Source of the DNA: a virus
Lineage: Duplodnaviria; Heunggongvirae; Uroviricota; Caudoviricetes
Strand: one strand, 5' to 3'
Length of the DNA stretch: 35,124 nt
Virus record (IMG/VR): IMGVR_UViG_2690316269_000012
The stretch's first letter is position 1, and every line of letters begins with the position of its first letter. The notes below the pieces were generated by a model. That model was not told the origin of the DNA, made no database searches, and worked only from the letters and a program-made list of their open reading frames with translations. Made by a program: the position numbers and the translations under genes. Positions 4,596 to 25,098 of the stretch are shown here, one piece after another.

Positions 4596-4985
4596 ATGAT
4601 TGACGCTCATGACTTCACAAGATGGGTGCGCACACAGGACACCCGTCTGGCTCCCGTTCTTCAGGGATTATTTGATCTCTACATCCGTGGTCGTGACAAC
4701 AGAGCACGCACCACAAAACCGGAGAATGCAGACACCCTTTATTTCACAGTAGACGACTGCTACCGCGTGGACTTCACACCACACGGGCTGGCGTTGCACT
4801 GCCTGACACCACACGGCGAATCACTGCTGGCGTATTACGACTCCCCGGCCTCCATATTTGCGGCAATGCTGGCGCATCGCACTGCTGGCGGGTGTGCCTC
4901 GCTGAGTGAATACTCCGCTGAATTTAACCGCCTTTCCGCCCTCTTCTCACAGGAGTGGCAGCGCGTGACGGGATACCAGCCATGA
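4596..4985 (+). CDS. hypothetical early protein (position of P2 B/orf8x genes)
   Basis: 129-aa ORF immediately upstream of and overlapping the gene A start. Confidence 0.5.
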   Translation: MIDAHDFTRWVRTQDTRLAPVLQGLFDLYIRGRDNRARTTKPENADTLYFTVDDCYRVDFTPHGLALHCLTPHGESLLAYYDSPASIFAAMLAHRTAGGCASLSEYSAEFNRLSALFSQEWQRVTGYQP

Positions 4986-7822
4986 GTGCGTTTGCATGGA
5001 GCTGGAATGAACCACGGCCAGCCATTGATCCGGCCAGATTTACGGAGCGCAGGCAGGAAACTGAAACCGACCTGCAACGCGCCATCCGTTACTACCTTGA
5101 GGCAAACAAAAGGGCACAGGAAGAACAGGAAGCGAAGGAAGAAGCCTTTTTCGCACAATCCACCGTGGGTAAAAAACTCATGGCATCCCTTGAGGAAGCC
5201 GGACAGCGTGAAAAGCTGGCACAAAGCATCATCAGCAAGCGTCAGGCAACAGAACAAGACCCGGTGGCCCGTGCTTTTGCCACACTGAAGGTGCTTCCCG
5301 TTTATCTGCGTGAACCTCTGAGCCGCCACCTCTCTTTTCTGCGCAAGAAGCAGGAAGCCGATCGTCAGAAAGGCAAAAAGAGCTGGCAGGCTGAACGCTA
5401 CGCGCGCGGAACCCTGCGCAAAATATTCGAACGTCTGGACCGCACCGACAGCCGCTGGCTGACACCGGGCTATCGCTCCCTTGCCGGACGCGAACGCCTG
5501 GACGATTTGCTTTACCTGCCGCAGCTCAACAAACACCAGATACAGACGCTGGCCACCATGACGGCGGCGATGTTCAGTGGCACTTTTGAAAAACTCTGCG
5601 ATGGCTTTGGCGCGACCGATGGCGAGCTGACCATGGATGTAACGCTGAAGGCGTATCAGATGCTGGCCCGCATGGCGTTACACCTGCACGCTATGCCTCC
5701 ACATTATGACGCTCTGACAACAGACAAAGACCGGAGGAATGAACCGGACACGGAGCTGCTGCCGGGCGCAATCCTTCGCCTGACCTGTGCGGAATGGTGG
5801 AAACGCAAACTGTGGCTGTTACGTTGCGAGTGGAGAGAAGAACAACTCCGCGCCGCCTGTCTGGTTTCCAGAAAAACATCACCCTATCTGAGCCAGGACG
5901 CGTTAAGCGAGTTTCGCGCACAGCGCGAGAAAACACGCGATTTCCTGAAAAGTTTCATGCTGGAAAACGAAGACGGGTTCACGATTGATCTCGAGACAGT
6001 GTATTACGCGGGAGTAAGTAACCCGATTCACCGTAAGGCAGAAATGATGGCCACCATGAAGGGGCTGGAACTTCTGGCCGAAGCCCGTGGCGACAGAGCG
6101 GTGTTTCTGACTGTCACCTGCCCGTCAAAATACCACGCCACAACAGAGAACGGTCATCCGAATCCCAAATGGAACGGGGCCACCATGCGCGACTCCAGCG
6201 ATTACCTGGTTAACACGTTTTTTGCGGCGGTCCGCAAGAAACTGAACCGCGACGGCCTGCGCTGGTATGGCATCCGCACGGTGGAGCCTCACCATGACGG
6301 CACCGTGCACTGGCATATGATGGTCTTTGCTCATCCGGAAGAAATCGACACCATTGTGTCCCACACCCGCGATATTGCCATTCAGGAAGACCGCCACGAG
6401 CTGGGCAATGATATTACTCCGCGCTTTAAGGTGGAGTATGTCGACGGCTCAAAAGGCACGCCAACCAGCTACATCGCCACCTACATCGGAAAGAACCTGG
6501 ACAGCCGCGCCGTGGATGGCATCGACCCGAAAACGGGCAAGCCACGCGTTGACCACGAAACCGGAAAATCAATGGCCGAGAGCGTGGAACGCGCCATCGG
6601 CTGGGCACGCCTTCACCGGGTCCGCCAGTTCCAGTTCTTTGGCATCCCCTCCCGTCAGGTATGGCGTGAACTCCGCCGCCTTGCCAGCCAGATGGCACGC
6701 AACCCGGAAGGCCCACAACGGCTGAAGGATGATGCAATGGATGCGGTACTCGCTGCCGCTGATGCCGGATGTTTTGCCACCTACATTGAAAAACAGGGTG
6801 GCGTACTTGTTCCGCGCAAGGACTACCTGATTCGCACAGCCTACGACCTCGCAGATGAGCTGAACGATTACGGCGAACAGAGTGTACAGATTTACGGGAT
6901 CTGGTCGCCATTCATCGGGGAATCCTCCCGTGTGTGCACGCATCCGGATAACTGGAAGCTGGTAAGACGTAAACCGGAAGCGGAAGACAGCGCCCGCGAA
7001 AATGGTTTTGACCTTCAGGGCGGCCCTGCCGCCCCTTGGACTCGTGGCAATAACTGTCCCCGTGTACAGGAAACAGGCAACAACGGGACAGAACAGCCGG
7101 AAGAACGGCCAGCACCGTGGCCGCAGCTTCCTGACGGCGTTGAAGTAAATGAATGGATGCGCTCACTGAAACGGCACGAACGCCGGGCGCTGATGCGTTC
7201 GCTTCGTGACAAACAGGCAAAAAACAGCAGCGATGAAATGCAGAACTGGACACAGAGCCGCAAACAGCAGCGGCCTTTGCCTGATAACCACGAGTTACTC
7301 GCTAAAGAATGGCGGGAGTCTGCTGAATCTCTCGGCCTGCATATCGGTGAACAACAGATGCAGCACCTGTTACGGGGCGGCAGTCTGTACGTTGACGGCA
7401 GCATCATTGCACCGCAGGGATTTGAAATTGTACGCAAACCGGATACCCGCCCGGACAGCCGAATCACGCAGCTCTGGCAGCGTCTGAGCCGTAATCATGG
7501 CGTAAGCAGCACGGAGATCCGCCATAACCCGGTCGCCAGCTATCTGGCACAGCTGGGGGCATCAGACCCTGAAGCCGCCGCACGCCTGGCATCCACACTT
7601 CAGCAGGACCAGAACACCATGAAAACACCCGTTACCGTGCTTTCTGACATGCTGCGCGCCATCCGCGACGCAGAGCACGCACAGAGAATCAGTGAAACCA
7701 CTGAACGCGCCAGCCGCAAAGCAGACCTGCTGCGGGGTGGCCTGACCAGTGGAAACAAAAAACAGACAGAAACGGGACTCACGAATCCCGTAAATGAGCA
7801 AAAAACGCGCAGCGATATATGA
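4982..7822 (+). CDS. A: rolling-circle replication initiator endonuclease (P2 gpA family)
   Basis: 946 aa from ATG at 4982; HUH-type motif (GTVHWHMMVF) and overall resemblance to P2 gene A product; longer than P2 A (about 761 aa) with a C-terminal extension. Confidence 0.88.
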   Translation: MSAFAWSWNEPRPAIDPARFTERRQETETDLQRAIRYYLEANKRAQEEQEAKEEAFFAQSTVGKKLMASLEEAGQREKLAQSIISKRQATEQDPVARAFATLKVLPVYLREPLSRHLSFLRKKQEADRQKGKKSWQAERYARGTLRKIFERLDRTDSRWLTPGYRSLAGRERLDDLLYLPQLNKHQIQTLATMTAAMFSGTFEKLCDGFGATDGELTMDVTLKAYQMLARMALHLHAMPPHYDALTTDKDRRNEPDTELLPGAILRLTCAEWWKRKLWLLRCEWREEQLRAACLVSRKTSPYLSQDALSEFRAQREKTRDFLKSFMLENEDGFTIDLETVYYAGVSNPIHRKAEMMATMKGLELLAEARGDRAVFLTVTCPSKYHATTENGHPNPKWNGATMRDSSDYLVNTFFAAVRKKLNRDGLRWYGIRTVEPHHDGTVHWHMMVFAHPEEIDTIVSHTRDIAIQEDRHELGNDITPRFKVEYVDGSKGTPTSYIATYIGKNLDSRAVDGIDPKTGKPRVDHETGKSMAESVERAIGWARLHRVRQFQFFGIPSRQVWRELRRLASQMARNPEGPQRLKDDAMDAVLAAADAGCFATYIEKQGGVLVPRKDYLIRTAYDLADELNDYGEQSVQIYGIWSPFIGESSRVCTHPDNWKLVRRKPEAEDSARENGFDLQGGPAAPWTRGNNCPRVQETGNNGTEQPEERPAPWPQLPDGVEVNEWMRSLKRHERRALMRSLRDKQAKNSSDEMQNWTQSRKQQRPLPDNHELLAKEWRESAESLGLHIGEQQMQHLLRGGSLYVDGSIIAPQGFEIVRKPDTRPDSRITQLWQRLSRNHGVSSTEIRHNPVASYLAQLGASDPEAAARLASTLQQDQNTMKTPVTVLSDMLRAIRDAEHAQRISETTERASRKADLLRGGLTSGNKKQTETGLTNPVNEQKTRSDI

Positions 7823-7869
7823 AGCGCGCACAAAACAGGCAAAAACGGGATTTCAGAATCCCGTAAACG
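7769..7869. repeat. two copies of a dyad-containing repeat, AAACGGGA-N-TCCCGTAAA (7769..7796 and 7843..7869)
   Basis: Copy 1 is inside the 3' end of A, copy 2 in the A-parM spacer; each holds a 6-8 bp inverted repeat; flanked by CAAAAAAC-like A-tracts. Confidence 0.5.
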
Positions 7870-7898
7870 ATTAATTAATCAACATAAGGAAAACCGAC

Positions 7899-8858
7899 AT
7901 GAAAATTTACATCGACGACGGCTCCACCAACATCAAGCTGGCATGGACTGAGAACGGCGAACGCCGCAACGCCATCAGCCCGAACAGCTTCAAGTCGGAA
8001 TGGTCTGCGCCGTTCGGTGGCTCGCAGCCTGCTAACTACATGCTTGATGGCGTGCGCTATGGTTTTGATCCGGTCAGCGATCGCTTTGTCCAGACGACCG
8101 ACACGCAATACCAGTACAGCGATGTGAATGTCATTGCCATTCATCACGCGCTGGTCAAATCAGACATCACGCCACAGGAAGTGGATGTGGTTGTTACCCT
8201 GCCACTGAGCGAATATTTCGACACAAACGCACAGCCGGACATGGCCAACATCAACCGCAAAAAAGCGAACGTCATGCGCCCGGTGGAGTACCAGAACGGC
8301 GAAGCATTCACTATCCGTAACGTACGGGTTATGCCTGAATCCATTCCGGCTGGCTTTAAAGCACTGGCTGACATGAGTCCGTTTGAATCCCTGCTGATTG
8401 TGGATTTGGGCGGAACCACGCTGGATGTGGCAAAGGTTCAGGGGCAACTGGCAGGTATCAGCCAGGTGTTTTGCGATCCACACGTAGGCGTTTCTCTTAT
8501 GGCCGATGCCGTACTGTCGGTGATGGCCACTAACGGTATGCGCACCAGTCACCACATCGCCAATACCATTATCGAACATCGCCATAATGAAGCCTGGCTG
8601 CGCCAGCACATCCACAATGACGCGCATTACGCCAGCCTGATGGCGGTTATTCGTGAAAAGGAAGAAACACTGAAACAACGCGTGATCCGCGCGCTGGCGG
8701 TTTTTTCGGGTTACGGGCGGGTGATGGTTGTCGGTGGCGGGGCGGAGATTGTGGCACCCGCTATCCGCGAAGCCTGCGGAGTTAATGCGACTTTCATCGC
8801 GGACGGGGTGCCACAGTTTGCTCTGGTTAATGGGCTGTACGCAATGGACAAGGAGTAA
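7899..8858 (+). CDS. parM: actin-like segregation ATPase ParM/StbA
   Basis: 319 aa; N-terminus MKIYIDDGSTNIKLAW and later blocks (YSDVNVIAIHHAL, VMPESIPAG, LIVDLGGTTLD, VVGGGAEI) match plasmid R1 ParM closely from memory. Confidence 0.88.
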   Translation: MKIYIDDGSTNIKLAWTENGERRNAISPNSFKSEWSAPFGGSQPANYMLDGVRYGFDPVSDRFVQTTDTQYQYSDVNVIAIHHALVKSDITPQEVDVVVTLPLSEYFDTNAQPDMANINRKKANVMRPVEYQNGEAFTIRNVRVMPESIPAGFKALADMSPFESLLIVDLGGTTLDVAKVQGQLAGISQVFCDPHVGVSLMADAVLSVMATNGMRTSHHIANTIIEHRHNEAWLRQHIHNDAHYASLMAVIREKEETLKQRVIRALAVFSGYGRVMVVGGGAEIVAPAIREACGVNATFIADGVPQFALVNGLYAMDKE

Positions 8859-8862
8859 ACCA

Positions 8863-9174
8863 ATGACGACACCAACCAGACGGATAAGTTTCTATCTGAA
8901 GCCCGCCGCCGTCAAGAACGAAGGAGAAGCATGCGCCTGGCTGGACAGCCTTACACCAGAAGCCCGCAAAAGCGGCCAACGCGTGGCTTTTCTGGCCGGG
9001 CTGGCACTTCTGAAGACGAATCCGGCAGAGGCTTACCGACTGGCCGCATGGGCTGATGATGAGATGTTACCTGTGACACAAATCAGCTCAAAAAAGTTTG
9101 AAGCACAGTCTGCACCAGTGGCTAAGATAACCAGCCAGATGGCTGGGAATATCCGGGCGTTATTTCCTGAGTAA
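8863..9174 (+). CDS. parR: ParR-like centromere-binding adaptor
   Basis: 104 aa from ATG at 8863; ISFYLKP...LDSLTPEARKSGQRVAFLAGLAL and C-terminal IRALFPE resemble R1 ParR; directly follows parM. Confidence 0.8.
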   Translation: MTTPTRRISFYLKPAAVKNEGEACAWLDSLTPEARKSGQRVAFLAGLALLKTNPAEAYRLAAWADDEMLPVTQISSKKFEAQSAPVAKITSQMAGNIRALFPE

Positions 9175-9302
9175 AAGCATCTGCGCGAAAAATGCTCACG
9201 TTTATAGAGACAGTATCATTCCATTTGGCACACTTACTTCAATAATCGATCTGTTAAACAAATAGATTGTCTATTATCTATCGATTAAAACGATCAATTA
9301 TC

Positions 9303-9331
9303 TTGACAGTAATGTGCCTTTTTGTAAGATC
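9303..9331 (+). promoter_or_regulatory. candidate promoter (TTGACA, about 16-nt spacer, TAAGAT)
   Basis: Consensus -35 at 9303..9308 in the AT-rich gap after parR; would give a long leader for the 9539..9808 ORF. Confidence 0.3.
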
Positions 9332-9372
9332 GTTCGCATTGTGAGCGACAAGATAATTGCGCGGCATTGTCC

Positions 9373-9471
9373 ATGCAAAACGCCCCAATAGCAGCAACTA
9401 TTGGGGCGTAAAACTCGGTCGGACTCACTTAACCTGATATGCGTGCCTTCCGAAGTAAATCAAAATGTGCG
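9373..9471 (-). ncRNA. candidate small RNA of about 100 nt, antisense to the leader of the 9539..9808 ORF
   Basis: Minus-strand promoter TTTACA-N17-TAAAAT (complement of 9478..9506) and an intrinsic terminator on the minus strand (11-bp GC-rich stem 9381..9391/9398..9408 followed by UUUUG); no ORF in the interval. Confidence 0.3.
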
Positions 9472-9538
9472 TCGTATATTTTATTGCTTACACGCACCTC
9501 TGTAAAGGCACGCATATTTTTCCTATGAGGTAAATAAA

Positions 9539-9808
9539 GTGCGGGCTAAAACAGGTATTTGCAAGAACCCTCATCGTTATAATCCAACATTTCTGTCTCT
9601 CCCTGAATATCAAGGACAAGAAGGTCGGCACAAATGCGCTGCCTGTGCTTTTGAGCTAGGCATAAAAGATGCGCTTGAAGGACGCGCTATGGCTCAGAAT
9701 GATTTAGTTTTAGCTAACATTCCGTTTAGCCAGGCTGGAACTGTAAGGCACAGAGATGCCTATGAAGCATATGTTCGTGGTTGGCGATTAATAAACAGCA
9801 ACAATTGA
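9539..9808 (+). CDS. small Cys/His-rich protein of unknown function
   Basis: 89 aa, GTG start with GAGG RBS; C8-x3-H12 and H31-x-C33-x2-C36 spacing suggests a zinc knuckle; own terminator downstream. Confidence 0.5.
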   Translation: MRAKTGICKNPHRYNPTFLSLPEYQGQEGRHKCAACAFELGIKDALEGRAMAQNDLVLANIPFSQAGTVRHRDAYEAYVRGWRLINSNN

Positions 9809-9816
9809 TACTTTTG

Positions 9817-9843
9817 AAGCGCCGATAAGGCGCTTTTTTTGTT
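9817..9843 (+). terminator. rho-independent terminator
   Basis: 7-bp stem AAGCGCC/GGCGCTT with GATAA loop followed by a T-run of 7, nine nt after the ORF stop. Confidence 0.65.
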
Positions 9844-22387: not shown

Positions 22388-24520
22388 ATGAGTACCACAA
22401 CACGAAAATTTAAAACCGTTATCACCGATACAGGTGCAAAAAAATTAGCTCAGGCAGCCGCGCCAGATGGTAAGCCTGTCCGCCTGACTCATATGGCCGT
22501 GGGCGACGGTGGCGGCGCGTTGCCCACACCAGACAGTAAGCAGACCCGTCTGGTGCATGAGGTGTGGCGACACACTGTTAATCGCGTCATCCTGGACGCA
22601 ACACATCAGAACCGCATTATTGCGGAGCTGGTTATTCCTCCAGAAACGGGCGGATTCTGGATCCGGGAAATTGGTGTGTTTGATGAGCACGGCGATTTAA
22701 TCGCGGTGGGCAATACTGCCGAAAGTTACAAGCCAGCCGTTGCCGAAGGGTCCGGACGTGCACAAACATTTCGCACCATTCTGACCGTATCCAGCACTGC
22801 CACTGTGGCGCTTACCGTGGATAACACCATGGTGATGGCCACAGTGGATTACGTGGATAACAAACTGAAAGAGCATGAACAGTCACGATGTCACCCGGAT
22901 GCCTCGCTGACCGCAAAAGGCTTTGTTCAACTCAGTAGCGCCACTAACAGCGATTCTGAAACGCTGGCTGCAACGCCGAAAGCGGTTAAGGTCGCGTATG
23001 ATCTTGCTAACGGAAAATATACAGCGCAGGATGCCACAACAGCGCGAAAAGGCCTTGTCCAGCTTAGTAGTGCAACCAACAGTACATCTGAAACGCTGGC
23101 GGCAACATCAAATGCAGTAAAAGCTGCCTATGACAATGCTGAAAAACGTCTGCAGAAAGCTAAGAATGGTGAGGATATCTCTGATAAAGACACCTTTACG
23201 AAAAATATCGGTGCCTGCCGTGCATATAGTGCAGAGCTGAATATTGGTGGAGATAGTGAAGCATGGACAACTGCGCAGTTGATTTTTTGGCTAGAGAGTC
23301 AGGGGGCATTTAACCATCCTTACTGGATGTGCAAAGGCTCATGGGCTTATGCAAATAATAAGGTCATTACAGATACAGGTTGCGGAAGTATTTGTCTTGC
23401 AGGTGCTGTTGTGGAAGTTATTGGCACCCGCGGCGCAATGACCATACGCATTACCACACCGAGTACATCCAGCGGTGAAGGCATCCCTAATGCTCAATTT
23501 ACTTATATTAATCATGGTGATGCTTATGCTCCTGGCTGGCGAAGGGACTATAACTCCAGGAATAAGCCAACAGCATCAGAGATCGGGGCGTTACCGTCAG
23601 ATGGGACAGCAGTATCGTCAGTTAATCTGGCTTCAAAAGGTCGGCTGACCGCTCTGACAGATAATATGCAGGGGGCCACAGGTCTGGAGTTATACGAGGC
23701 GTATAACAACGGATATCCAACAACGTATGGAAATATCATTCACCTGAAAGGGATGACAGCCGTTGGCGAAGGCGAATTACTCATCGGCTGGAGTGGTATA
23801 AGCGGTGCTCATGCTCCGGCATTTATTCGTTCACGACGGGATACGACCGACGCAAACTGGTCGCCGTGGGCGCAGCTTTACACCTCGGCTCATCCTCCTG
23901 AAGAGTTTTATCCAGTCGGTGCACCGATTCCGTGGCCATCAGATACCGTTCCGTCTGGTTATGCCCTGATGCAGGGGCAGACTTTTGACAAATCTGCATA
24001 CCCGAAACTTGCAGTCGCTTATCCGTCAGGCGTTATTCCTGATATGCGTGGCTGGACGATTAAGGGCAAGCCCGGCAGTGGTCGTGCCGTATTGTCTCAG
24101 GAACAGGACGGCATTAAATCGCACACCCACAGCGCCAGCGCATCCAGTACGGATTTGGGGACGAAAACCACATCGTCGTTTGATTACGGTACTAAAACGA
24201 CCAGTTCATTTGATTACGGCACAAAAACTACGAATAGCGCTGGAAATCATTCACACAATATACCTGTTGGTCACACTGGCGCGGGGAATGGTGTATCAGC
24301 CGGTTATAACGCTGCGTTAGGTACTGGTACCACGTCGAGCGCAGGCGAGCATGCTCACAATGTATATATCGGTGCCCATAACCACACTATCGGCATTGGT
24401 GCTCATGCCCATTCTGTCATTATTGGTCCCCACGGACACACCATCACCGTTAACGCTACGGGTAACGAAGAAAACACCGTAAAAAACATCGCATTTAACT
24501 ATATTGTGAGGCTTGCATAA
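22388..24520 (+). CDS. H: tail fibre protein H
   Basis: 710 aa; repeated [16 protein letters not shown] motifs and C-terminal His-rich repeats typical of tail-fibre tips. Confidence 0.88.
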
Positions 24521-25098
24521 TGACATTCAGAATGAGTGAACACTCACGGACCATAAAAATTTATAATCTACTGACCGGAACCAATGAGTTTATTGGTGAA
24601 GGTGATGCATACATTCCACCTCATACAGGTCTGCCTGCAAACAGTACCGATATTGCCCCGCCAGATATTCCGGCTGGCTTCGTGGCCGTTTTCAACAGTG
24701 ATGAGGCATCGTGGCATCTCGTTGAAGACCATCGGGGTAAAACGGTTTATGACGTGGCATCAGGGGACTCGTTATTTATTTCTGAACTCGGTCCATTACC
24801 GGAAAATGTTACCTGGTTGTCGCCGTATGGAGAGTATCAGAAGTGGAACGGCACATCCTGGGTGAAAGATGCAGAAGCAGAAAAACTGTTTCGGATAAGG
24901 GAGGCGGAAGAAACAAAAAACAGCCTGATGCAGGTAGCCAGCGAGCATATTGCGCCACTTCAGGATGCCGTAGATTTGGATATTGCAACGGAGGAAGAGG
25001 CATCGTTACTGGCTGCATGGAAGACATACCGGGTATTGTTGAATCGTGTTAATACAGCGGTAGCAGCGGATGTTGAGTGGCCAGTCGCCCCACAATAA
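24520..25098 (+). CDS. G: tail fibre assembly chaperone G
   Basis: 192 aa; ATGA overlap with H; position. Confidence 0.8.

Follow-up and report, generated by a model that had tools for sequence, protein, structure and literature searches.

What is the function of a duplicated, dyad-containing repeat that runs from the end of a phage replication gene, across its stop codon, to just before a plasmid-type partition operon? The question arises at the junction of genes A and parM in IMG/VR virus record IMGVR_UViG_2690316269_000012, a Caudoviricetes sequence of 35,124 nucleotides (the whole of which is referred to here as the window) that represents a P88-like temperate Escherichia coli phage (genus Xuanwuvirus, Peduoviridae, P2-like). 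An initial annotation of this DNA had proposed the repeat pair as a candidate parC centromere or operator. Our analysis indicates that the two repeat blocks are likely to be a parC-type, centromere-like binding site for the ParR protein, forming part of a type II partition cassette, parC-parM-parR (7756–9174). The parC half of the earlier proposal was strengthened by the linkage of the repeats to parMR, by their absence where parMR is absent and by their plasmid-like layout, whereas the operator half was not.

Structure and conservation of the repeat pair

A repeat search of the window confirmed that two dyad-bearing copies lie 73 bp apart, as first described, one inside the end of gene A and the other in the 76-bp spacer between the A stop codon (TGA, 7820–7822) and the parM start (7899). 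Block 1 (7756–7797) and block 2 (7829–7870), each 42 nt long and each a putative part of parC, are direct repeats with 81% identity and a start-to-start distance of 73 bp (these and the other repeat elements are given without strand). Block 1 falls within the final 22 codons of gene A, whereas block 2 is intergenic. Common to both is a dyad of the form ACGGGA-N8-TCCCGT. Dyad 1 (7772–7791) reads ACGGGA-CTCACGAA-TCCCGT in the window, where its arms (7772–7780 and 7783–7791) are 89% complementary, and in most relatives it takes the form of a perfect 8+8 dyad, ACGGGATT-CACA-AATCCCGT. Dyad 2 (7845–7864), ACGGGATT-TCAG-AATCCCGT, has 8-nt arms (7845–7852 and 7857–7864) that are 100% complementary, which verifies the perfect stem and 4-nt loop reported for this copy. 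Between the blocks lies a core (7798–7828) containing a GC palindrome, CGCGC (7806–7810) and GCGCG (7824–7828), with the A stop codon in its loop; the 3′ end of gene A enters block 1 and terminates within this core. Even with up to three mismatches allowed, the 35 kb of the window contain just two instances of the 25-nt repeat core AAACGGGA-N6-AATCCCGTAAA, compared with 0.00 expected from 100 shuffles.

The second copy had also been said to re-encode a TG-NPVN peptide resembling the A C-terminus. The echo is real (KKQTETGLTNPVNEQ in the A frame of copy 1; TKQAKTGFQNPVND followed by a stop in copy 2) and is one frame off in copy 2 because 73 is 72 + 1; since it arises from DNA sequence shared by the copies, it has no meaning beyond that identity. 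A-tracts provide a further regularity in the blocks. AAAC motifs at 7760, 7770, 7803, 7833, 7843 and 7865, together with a related TAAAT at 7791, recur with a phase of ~10.5 bp, a phasing that falls in the top ~1% of segments of this sequence and is marginal against composition-matched shuffles (p 0.035–0.08). We regard it as suggestive of hidden direct iterons. The blocks, each palindromic, are also complementary to each other, and in the minimum-energy fold of either strand of 7752–7900 (−33.5 and −40 kcal/mol) they pair with one another, enclosing the central GC hairpin. This pairing is probably a by-product; it could matter in single-stranded intermediates of rolling-circle replication.

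Conservation of the site was assessed in 65 distinct sequences, relatives from Hafnia and Cronobacter included. The GGGA/TCCC cores of the dyads were invariant in all 65, the dyad centres were free to vary (CTCACGA, TTCACAA, TTTCAGA, TTTAAAA and TTTGAAA, the last three being variants of dyad 2) and the outer pairs were altered on one side only. Compensatory double changes were found in neither dyad, the single instance (1/65 sequences) lying in the GC palindrome of the core. When each event was counted once, the single-sided changes were balanced between those of G-U type, which retain plus-strand pairing (~7), and those of A-C type, which retain minus-strand pairing (~6). The Hafnia relative keeps both dyads, and the Cronobacter relative keeps dyad 1 intact and carries two changes in the 3′ arm of dyad 2. 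Across the element as a whole, 33% of positions vary, compared with ~60% of third codon positions in the flanking genes. Such a pattern is typical of a double-stranded DNA site composed of two half-sites and not of an RNA hairpin.

Inheritance with parMR and resemblance to known partition loci

When IMG/VR was scanned for the dyad pattern, 120 loci matched, almost all of them representing the same A-parM junction, and the 200 nt upstream of parM were aligned for 110 loci (76 distinct sequences). The left edge of homology falls at ~7756–7768, the start of block 1, in three unrelated left contexts: the P88-type A gene, locus L057, and a context shared by locus L082 and an E. coli O169 chromosome (L143). 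In L057 the upstream long open reading frame (ORF) stops 55 nt before copy 1, which lies outside any long ORF, and in L082 and L143 copy 1 falls within a different ORF and is read in another frame (ending ...QKRDSQIP before a stop in L082). Among the relatives, copy 1 shows no conservation at the peptide level. In a further locus, L025, foreign DNA adjoins block 2 directly, so that only block 2 is kept and homology starts there. The initial annotation had recommended comparing A 3′ ends in relatives that lack parMR, and this comparison came out in favor of a link with the partition genes: in two A genes that belong to the same type but lack parMR (L141 and L142), homology is lost at ~7706–7710, the genes end a few codons later and no dyad is present. 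At the other end, homology with P88-type phages ceases at 9174, and the parR stop codon forms the right edge of the cassette.

Because the left contexts differ, the A genes without parMR lack the dyads and homology on the right ends at the parR stop, the unit of inheritance appears to comprise block 1, the core, block 2, parM and parR (7756–9174). It is well supported by these alignments that the repeats are tied to parMR rather than to gene A and that the peptide they encode is irrelevant. The earlier suggestion of a local duplication of the A C-terminus would have the direction reversed: the two blocks look like the ancestral parC layout, and it is the A ORF of this phage lineage that has grown into the first of them. 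The 3′ end of gene A (~7706–7755) itself has the appearance of a module junction. The A genes of L141 and L142 carry different short tails and other cargo, which in L141 consists of an AAA ATPase and an S8 peptidase (a combination that looks like a defense-type pair) and in L142 of three minus-strand hypothetical genes. Decayed cassettes were also observed: parM is deleted after ~20 codons in L068, which keeps both blocks; it is truncated in L025, with the foreign DNA next to block 2; and in L137 parR is frameshifted and lies beside transposase gene fragments. Target-site duplication was rejected as an origin of the repeats because the copies do not flank parMR but lie together on one side of it, and an alternative centromere downstream of parR was rejected because cassette homology stops at the parR stop codon. 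Pattern matches in five unrelated viral contigs (L052, L063, L096, L111 and L115) were discarded as generic post-stop hairpins with GC-rich centers.

The products of both partition genes are recognizable relatives of plasmid proteins. The parM gene (7899–8858, plus strand) encodes an actin-like segregation ATPase (Pfam StbA_N, 9.7e-81; ParM C-terminal domain, 3e-68) that is 46% identical to ParM of an R1-type plasmid, and parR (8863–9174, plus strand) encodes a 103-amino-acid adaptor and predicted centromere-binding protein (Pfam PF10784 Plasmid_stab_B, 2.4e-23) that is 34% identical to the R1-type ParR over the N-terminal 56 residues, with RRISFYLKP in place of RTIAFKLNP. Among the 57 ParR variants found, the first 18 residues are identical in nearly all, the strand RRISFYLKP never varies and an NIRALFPE-like C-terminal tail (NIRALFPE/NIQAFFPK) is conserved throughout. 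The ParR linker (~residues 64–90) falls into at least three allelic classes, with overall identities of ~100%, ~83% and ~54% (loci L002–L121); ParR is mosaic while ParM is 94–100% conserved, and a DNA homology breakpoint lies near codon 18 (~8917), a combination that may reflect recombination, or pressure on the linker to diversify. The same upstream DNA goes with all of the linker classes. An invariant ParR strand beside invariant half-sites is consistent with ParR as the binder, and since nothing varies it affords no co-variation test: the Hafnia and Cronobacter relatives keep both RRISFYL and the GGGA/TCCC cores, leaving nothing to co-vary, and the most divergent ParR (P0031, 62% identical) comes from a contig that begins inside parM.

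The nearest plasmid parMR loci (ParM 51–52% identical) each have two repeat blocks, with block sequences unrelated to those of the phage. In the window the blocks are spaced 73 bp apart and block 2 starts 70 bp before the parM ATG; the corresponding distances are 73 and 64 bp in an IncFII plasmid of Citrobacter freundii (L123), 73 and 52 bp in a pOXA-48-like IncL/M plasmid (L122) and 72 and 66 bp in a Pluralibacter locus (L132). All three loci thus resemble the phage site in the spacing of their two blocks (72–73 bp) and, approximately, in how far upstream of parM these lie. They differ from it in that their blocks are made of direct ~11-bp iterons (e.g., TTGTTCTCTAA and GTATTTTTCT), whereas the phage blocks each contain a dyad, and in that a sigma-70 promoter match lies between the plasmid blocks (11/12 in L123, 10/12 in L122 and 11/12 in L132), a position filled in the phage by the A stop codon within its GC palindrome. 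No promoter was called between the blocks in the window, where the best match at the equivalent offset, judged by eye, is ~7/12, compared with 10–11/12 in the plasmid relatives. Unrelated block sequences are as expected of sites that would each co-evolve with their own ParR, and the shared two-block layout is the strongest single argument for regarding the repeats as parC.

A similar mixture of likeness and difference emerges from the comparison with plasmid R1, whose parC spans 159 bp upstream of parM and comprises two sets of five 11-bp iterons, each iteron being bound by about one ParR dimer, on either side of a 39-bp promoter core (PMC2241845). A parC sequence of the R1 type was read in locus L126. 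It lies on the same side of parM-parR and in the same orientation as the phage site, and both sites consist of two repeat blocks of ~40–55 bp each within ~140–160 bp and are A-rich with A-tracts in helical phase, a phasing that is marginal in the phage. The R1 site has 5+5 tandem direct 11-bp iterons in blocks 94 bp apart, whereas the phage site has one 20-bp dyad per block and a spacing of 73 bp; R1 has its promoter core, whereas the phage site has no recognizable promoter and its block 1 lies within the upstream ORF. Compared with what is expected of a parC, then, the phage element directly precedes parM and parR, in that order and in the same orientation, is inherited with parMR independently of its neighbors and consists of repeated units in two blocks, and it lacks a par promoter between those blocks.

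Two other systems offer precedents for such machinery on integrating elements. The srpMRC locus of SXT/R391 integrative and conjugative elements (ICEs) is, like the phage cassette, a type II-like partition system on a normally integrated element, and its centromere, srpC, contains four direct and inverted repeats (PMC4489591). It differs in that SrpR has no recognizable ParR homology (PMC4489591), whereas the phage ParR is a clear PF10784 member, and in that its host is an ICE and not a phage. AlpACS of the Corynebacterium glutamicum prophage CGP3 likewise combines a prophage actin-like protein with a DNA-binding adaptor that binds sites (alpS) near its own operon, and has been implicated in moving and replicating phage DNA after induction (PMC4446434, PMC5539076). 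Its actin-like protein is from a distant family and its host is an actinobacterium, and its adaptor and site sequences differ from those of the E. coli cassette.

Alternative readings and the proposed mechanism

Other functions for the dyads can be weighed against the same data. The initial annotation had raised the possibility that they act as minus-strand intrinsic terminators, which would halt antisense transcription arriving from the side of parMR and the downstream moron-like gene before it reaches gene A. In the window the hairpins and their T-runs are indeed present: each dyad is scored as terminator-like when read on the minus strand (stem of 8 pairs, loop of 4 nt, T-rich tail), and the hairpins of that strand fold at −10.2 kcal/mol. 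We nevertheless consider this function very improbable, given that the tail after stem 2 is cut to TTTCGCC in frequent relatives (variants GGCGAAAGCGGG), that the tail after stem 1 is merely TTTCTG and that changes breaking minus-strand pairing are as frequent as changes keeping it. Nor does any minus-strand transcription unit enter the region and end at the dyads, the sole minus-strand promoter-like site to the right (9506–9478) having a hairpin of its own (9385–9407), and termination would leave unexplained why there are two copies at the spacing of plasmid parC (72–73 bp). A role in the plus-strand A-parM mRNA, through processing, stability or control of parM translation, fits the probable transcription of the region within that message, the folding of plus-strand 7752–7900 with a z-score of −5.2 and the many single-sided changes that yield G-U pairs on the plus strand. 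Such strong z-scores follow automatically from the palindromic nature of the repeats, however, and the dyads show no compensatory changes, a balance of G-U and A-C events and, in Cronobacter, two mismatches in dyad 2. The Shine-Dalgarno sequence and ATG are unsequestered in the predicted structure, and Rfam 15 yielded no match in 7650–7950 at E ≤ 1 and none at the gathering score, which also counts against a structured mRNA element; we judge this role improbable.

It is also unlikely, in our assessment, that the repeats bind a different protein, such as a regulator of the phage or its host, or are a functionless remnant of the recombination event that brought the cassette and gene A together. 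The junction between A and its cargo is a recombination hotspot, with differing tails and cargo (L141, L142) and differing left contexts (L057, L082, L143), and ParR is a putative binder. Yet a relic would not be expected to stay better conserved than synonymous sites or to keep its GGGA/TCCC cores in Hafnia and Cronobacter, and the dyad pattern is unlike any other place in the phage. The Ogr-type site of P2 biology is TGT-N12-ACA, a pattern that the dyads do not fit.

Several results weigh against the assignment of the repeats to parC. Canonical R1-type sites are tandem direct 10–11-bp iterons, and the phage repeats are two dyads. No sigma-70-like promoter was called anywhere in 7300–7900, and the autoregulatory half of a parC is absent or different here. 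Although relatives were sought in phages, plasmids, reference genomes and a set of 5.8 billion proteins, none of intermediate distance were found, the clade with 94–100% ParM identity being followed by proteins of at most 52%, and ParR-site co-variation is uninformative as a result. A phmmer search of ParR against PDB sequences gave no match at E ≤ 1, and the AlphaFold2 monomer model was poor, with a predicted local distance difference test (pLDDT) score of 57, helices at residues 20–29, 32–52, 54–61 and 86–100 and a disordered N-terminus. The 161-bp element occurs in 1301 of 5426 complete E. coli genomes (about a quarter), with up to three copies per genome, and 1438 of the 1440 copies are chromosomal, where a centromere has no obvious use. 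Finally, the searchable literature (P88, Xuanwuvirus, CP-933T and prophage ParMR) contained no paper on this parC or on the function of the cassette, and no results on binding or stabilization by it.

With these points taken into account, we still favor a parC-type site bound by ParR. ParR dimers would bind the GGGAT...ATCCC half-sites through RRISFYL, the invariant strand at the N-terminus of a putative ribbon-helix-helix-type fold, and may also contact the flanking phased AAAC/A-tract turns. Because 73 bp corresponds to ~7 helical turns, the two blocks would present the same helix face, which could allow a bent partition complex like that of R1 parC and ParR. Such a complex would capture the ends of ParM filaments through the conserved ParR C-terminal tail (NIRALFPE), and ParM would then move or position circular phage DNA, either excised or replicating. 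An operator role, as initially suggested, was unsupported, no sigma-70-like promoter being found between or after the blocks; because the inter-block promoter is absent, transcription of parMR probably depends on read-through out of the early (A) operon. The site would accordingly serve as a centromere and not as a classical operator.

Phage context, distribution and implications

The window matches 14 phage records at 95–98% identity over 7300–9400. Gene A, upstream of the cassette, encodes a replication endonuclease (4955–7822, plus strand; identified from the ORF list and by Pfam Phage_GPA, 9.7e-130), and block 2 is followed by a conserved parM leader (7871–7898, plus strand) that contains the Shine-Dalgarno sequence AAGGA (7886–7890) and is almost unchanged among relatives, Hafnia and Cronobacter included. 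Beyond the cassette, the minus strand carries the portal and terminase genes. The spacer 3′ of parR (9175–9540) is AT-rich and little conserved, and it contains promoter-like sites on the plus strand (9303–9330, TTGACA/TAAGAT) and on the minus strand (9506–9478, TTTACA/TAAAAT), as well as a hairpin with a 9-bp stem (CCCCAATAG, 9385–9393; CTATTGGGG, 9399–9407) and a short minus-strand T-run, CGTTTTG. The minus-strand promoter-like site and the hairpin could together specify a small RNA of ~90 nt. An 89-amino-acid ORF without a Pfam match (9539–9808, plus strand) is followed by a clean plus-strand terminator (9816–9836, GAAGCGCC...GGCGCTTTTTTTG); this arrangement looks like a moron inserted between parR and the cos/portal region, and the region (9539–9836) varies among relatives. 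Elsewhere in the window, 24863–25061 (plus strand) is a full-length Rfam match to IS009 (RF02111; 192 bits, E = 1.6e-46) that overlaps the 3′ part of ORF 24520–25098, adjoining the tail-fiber gene.

Nearly all E. coli copies of the element lie in integrated prophages that retain an intact partition cassette. One record listed as a plasmid in PLSDB (NZ_CP148288.1, L146), circular and 34,461 bp long, consists almost entirely of P2-type phage genes and carries integrase, cox, A, parM and parR. It could represent an episomal state of the phage, or induced phage caught by the assembly.

Databases annotate only "ParM" and "partition protein" in this cassette, and the repeat pair would supply its missing third component, parC, making it a ParMRC system. 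Compared with known sites this parC appears to be a variant, with dyads instead of tandem iterons and no inner promoter, and it may show how a plasmid parC is reshaped after capture by a phage: the spacing is kept, the promoter core is replaced and the upstream replication gene ends inside the site. Its biochemistry should follow that of a known system, here found in an unusual host element; for the specialist the surprise is moderate, and the two 20-bp dyads provide a small, precise and testable target. The broader question raised is why a P2-like prophage that is almost always integrated keeps a plasmid-type DNA-segregation machine. One possibility, which we offer tentatively and regard as doubtful in its full form, is that the repeats constitute a promoter-less, two-dyad "minimal" type II centromere that is switched on only by early-operon read-through, with ParMR acting on the excised or replicating phage circle. 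If so, ParMR would position replication or packaging, or give the phage a transient plasmid-like inheritance, and a ParR-bound site straddling the A stop codon could feed back on the read-through into parMR.

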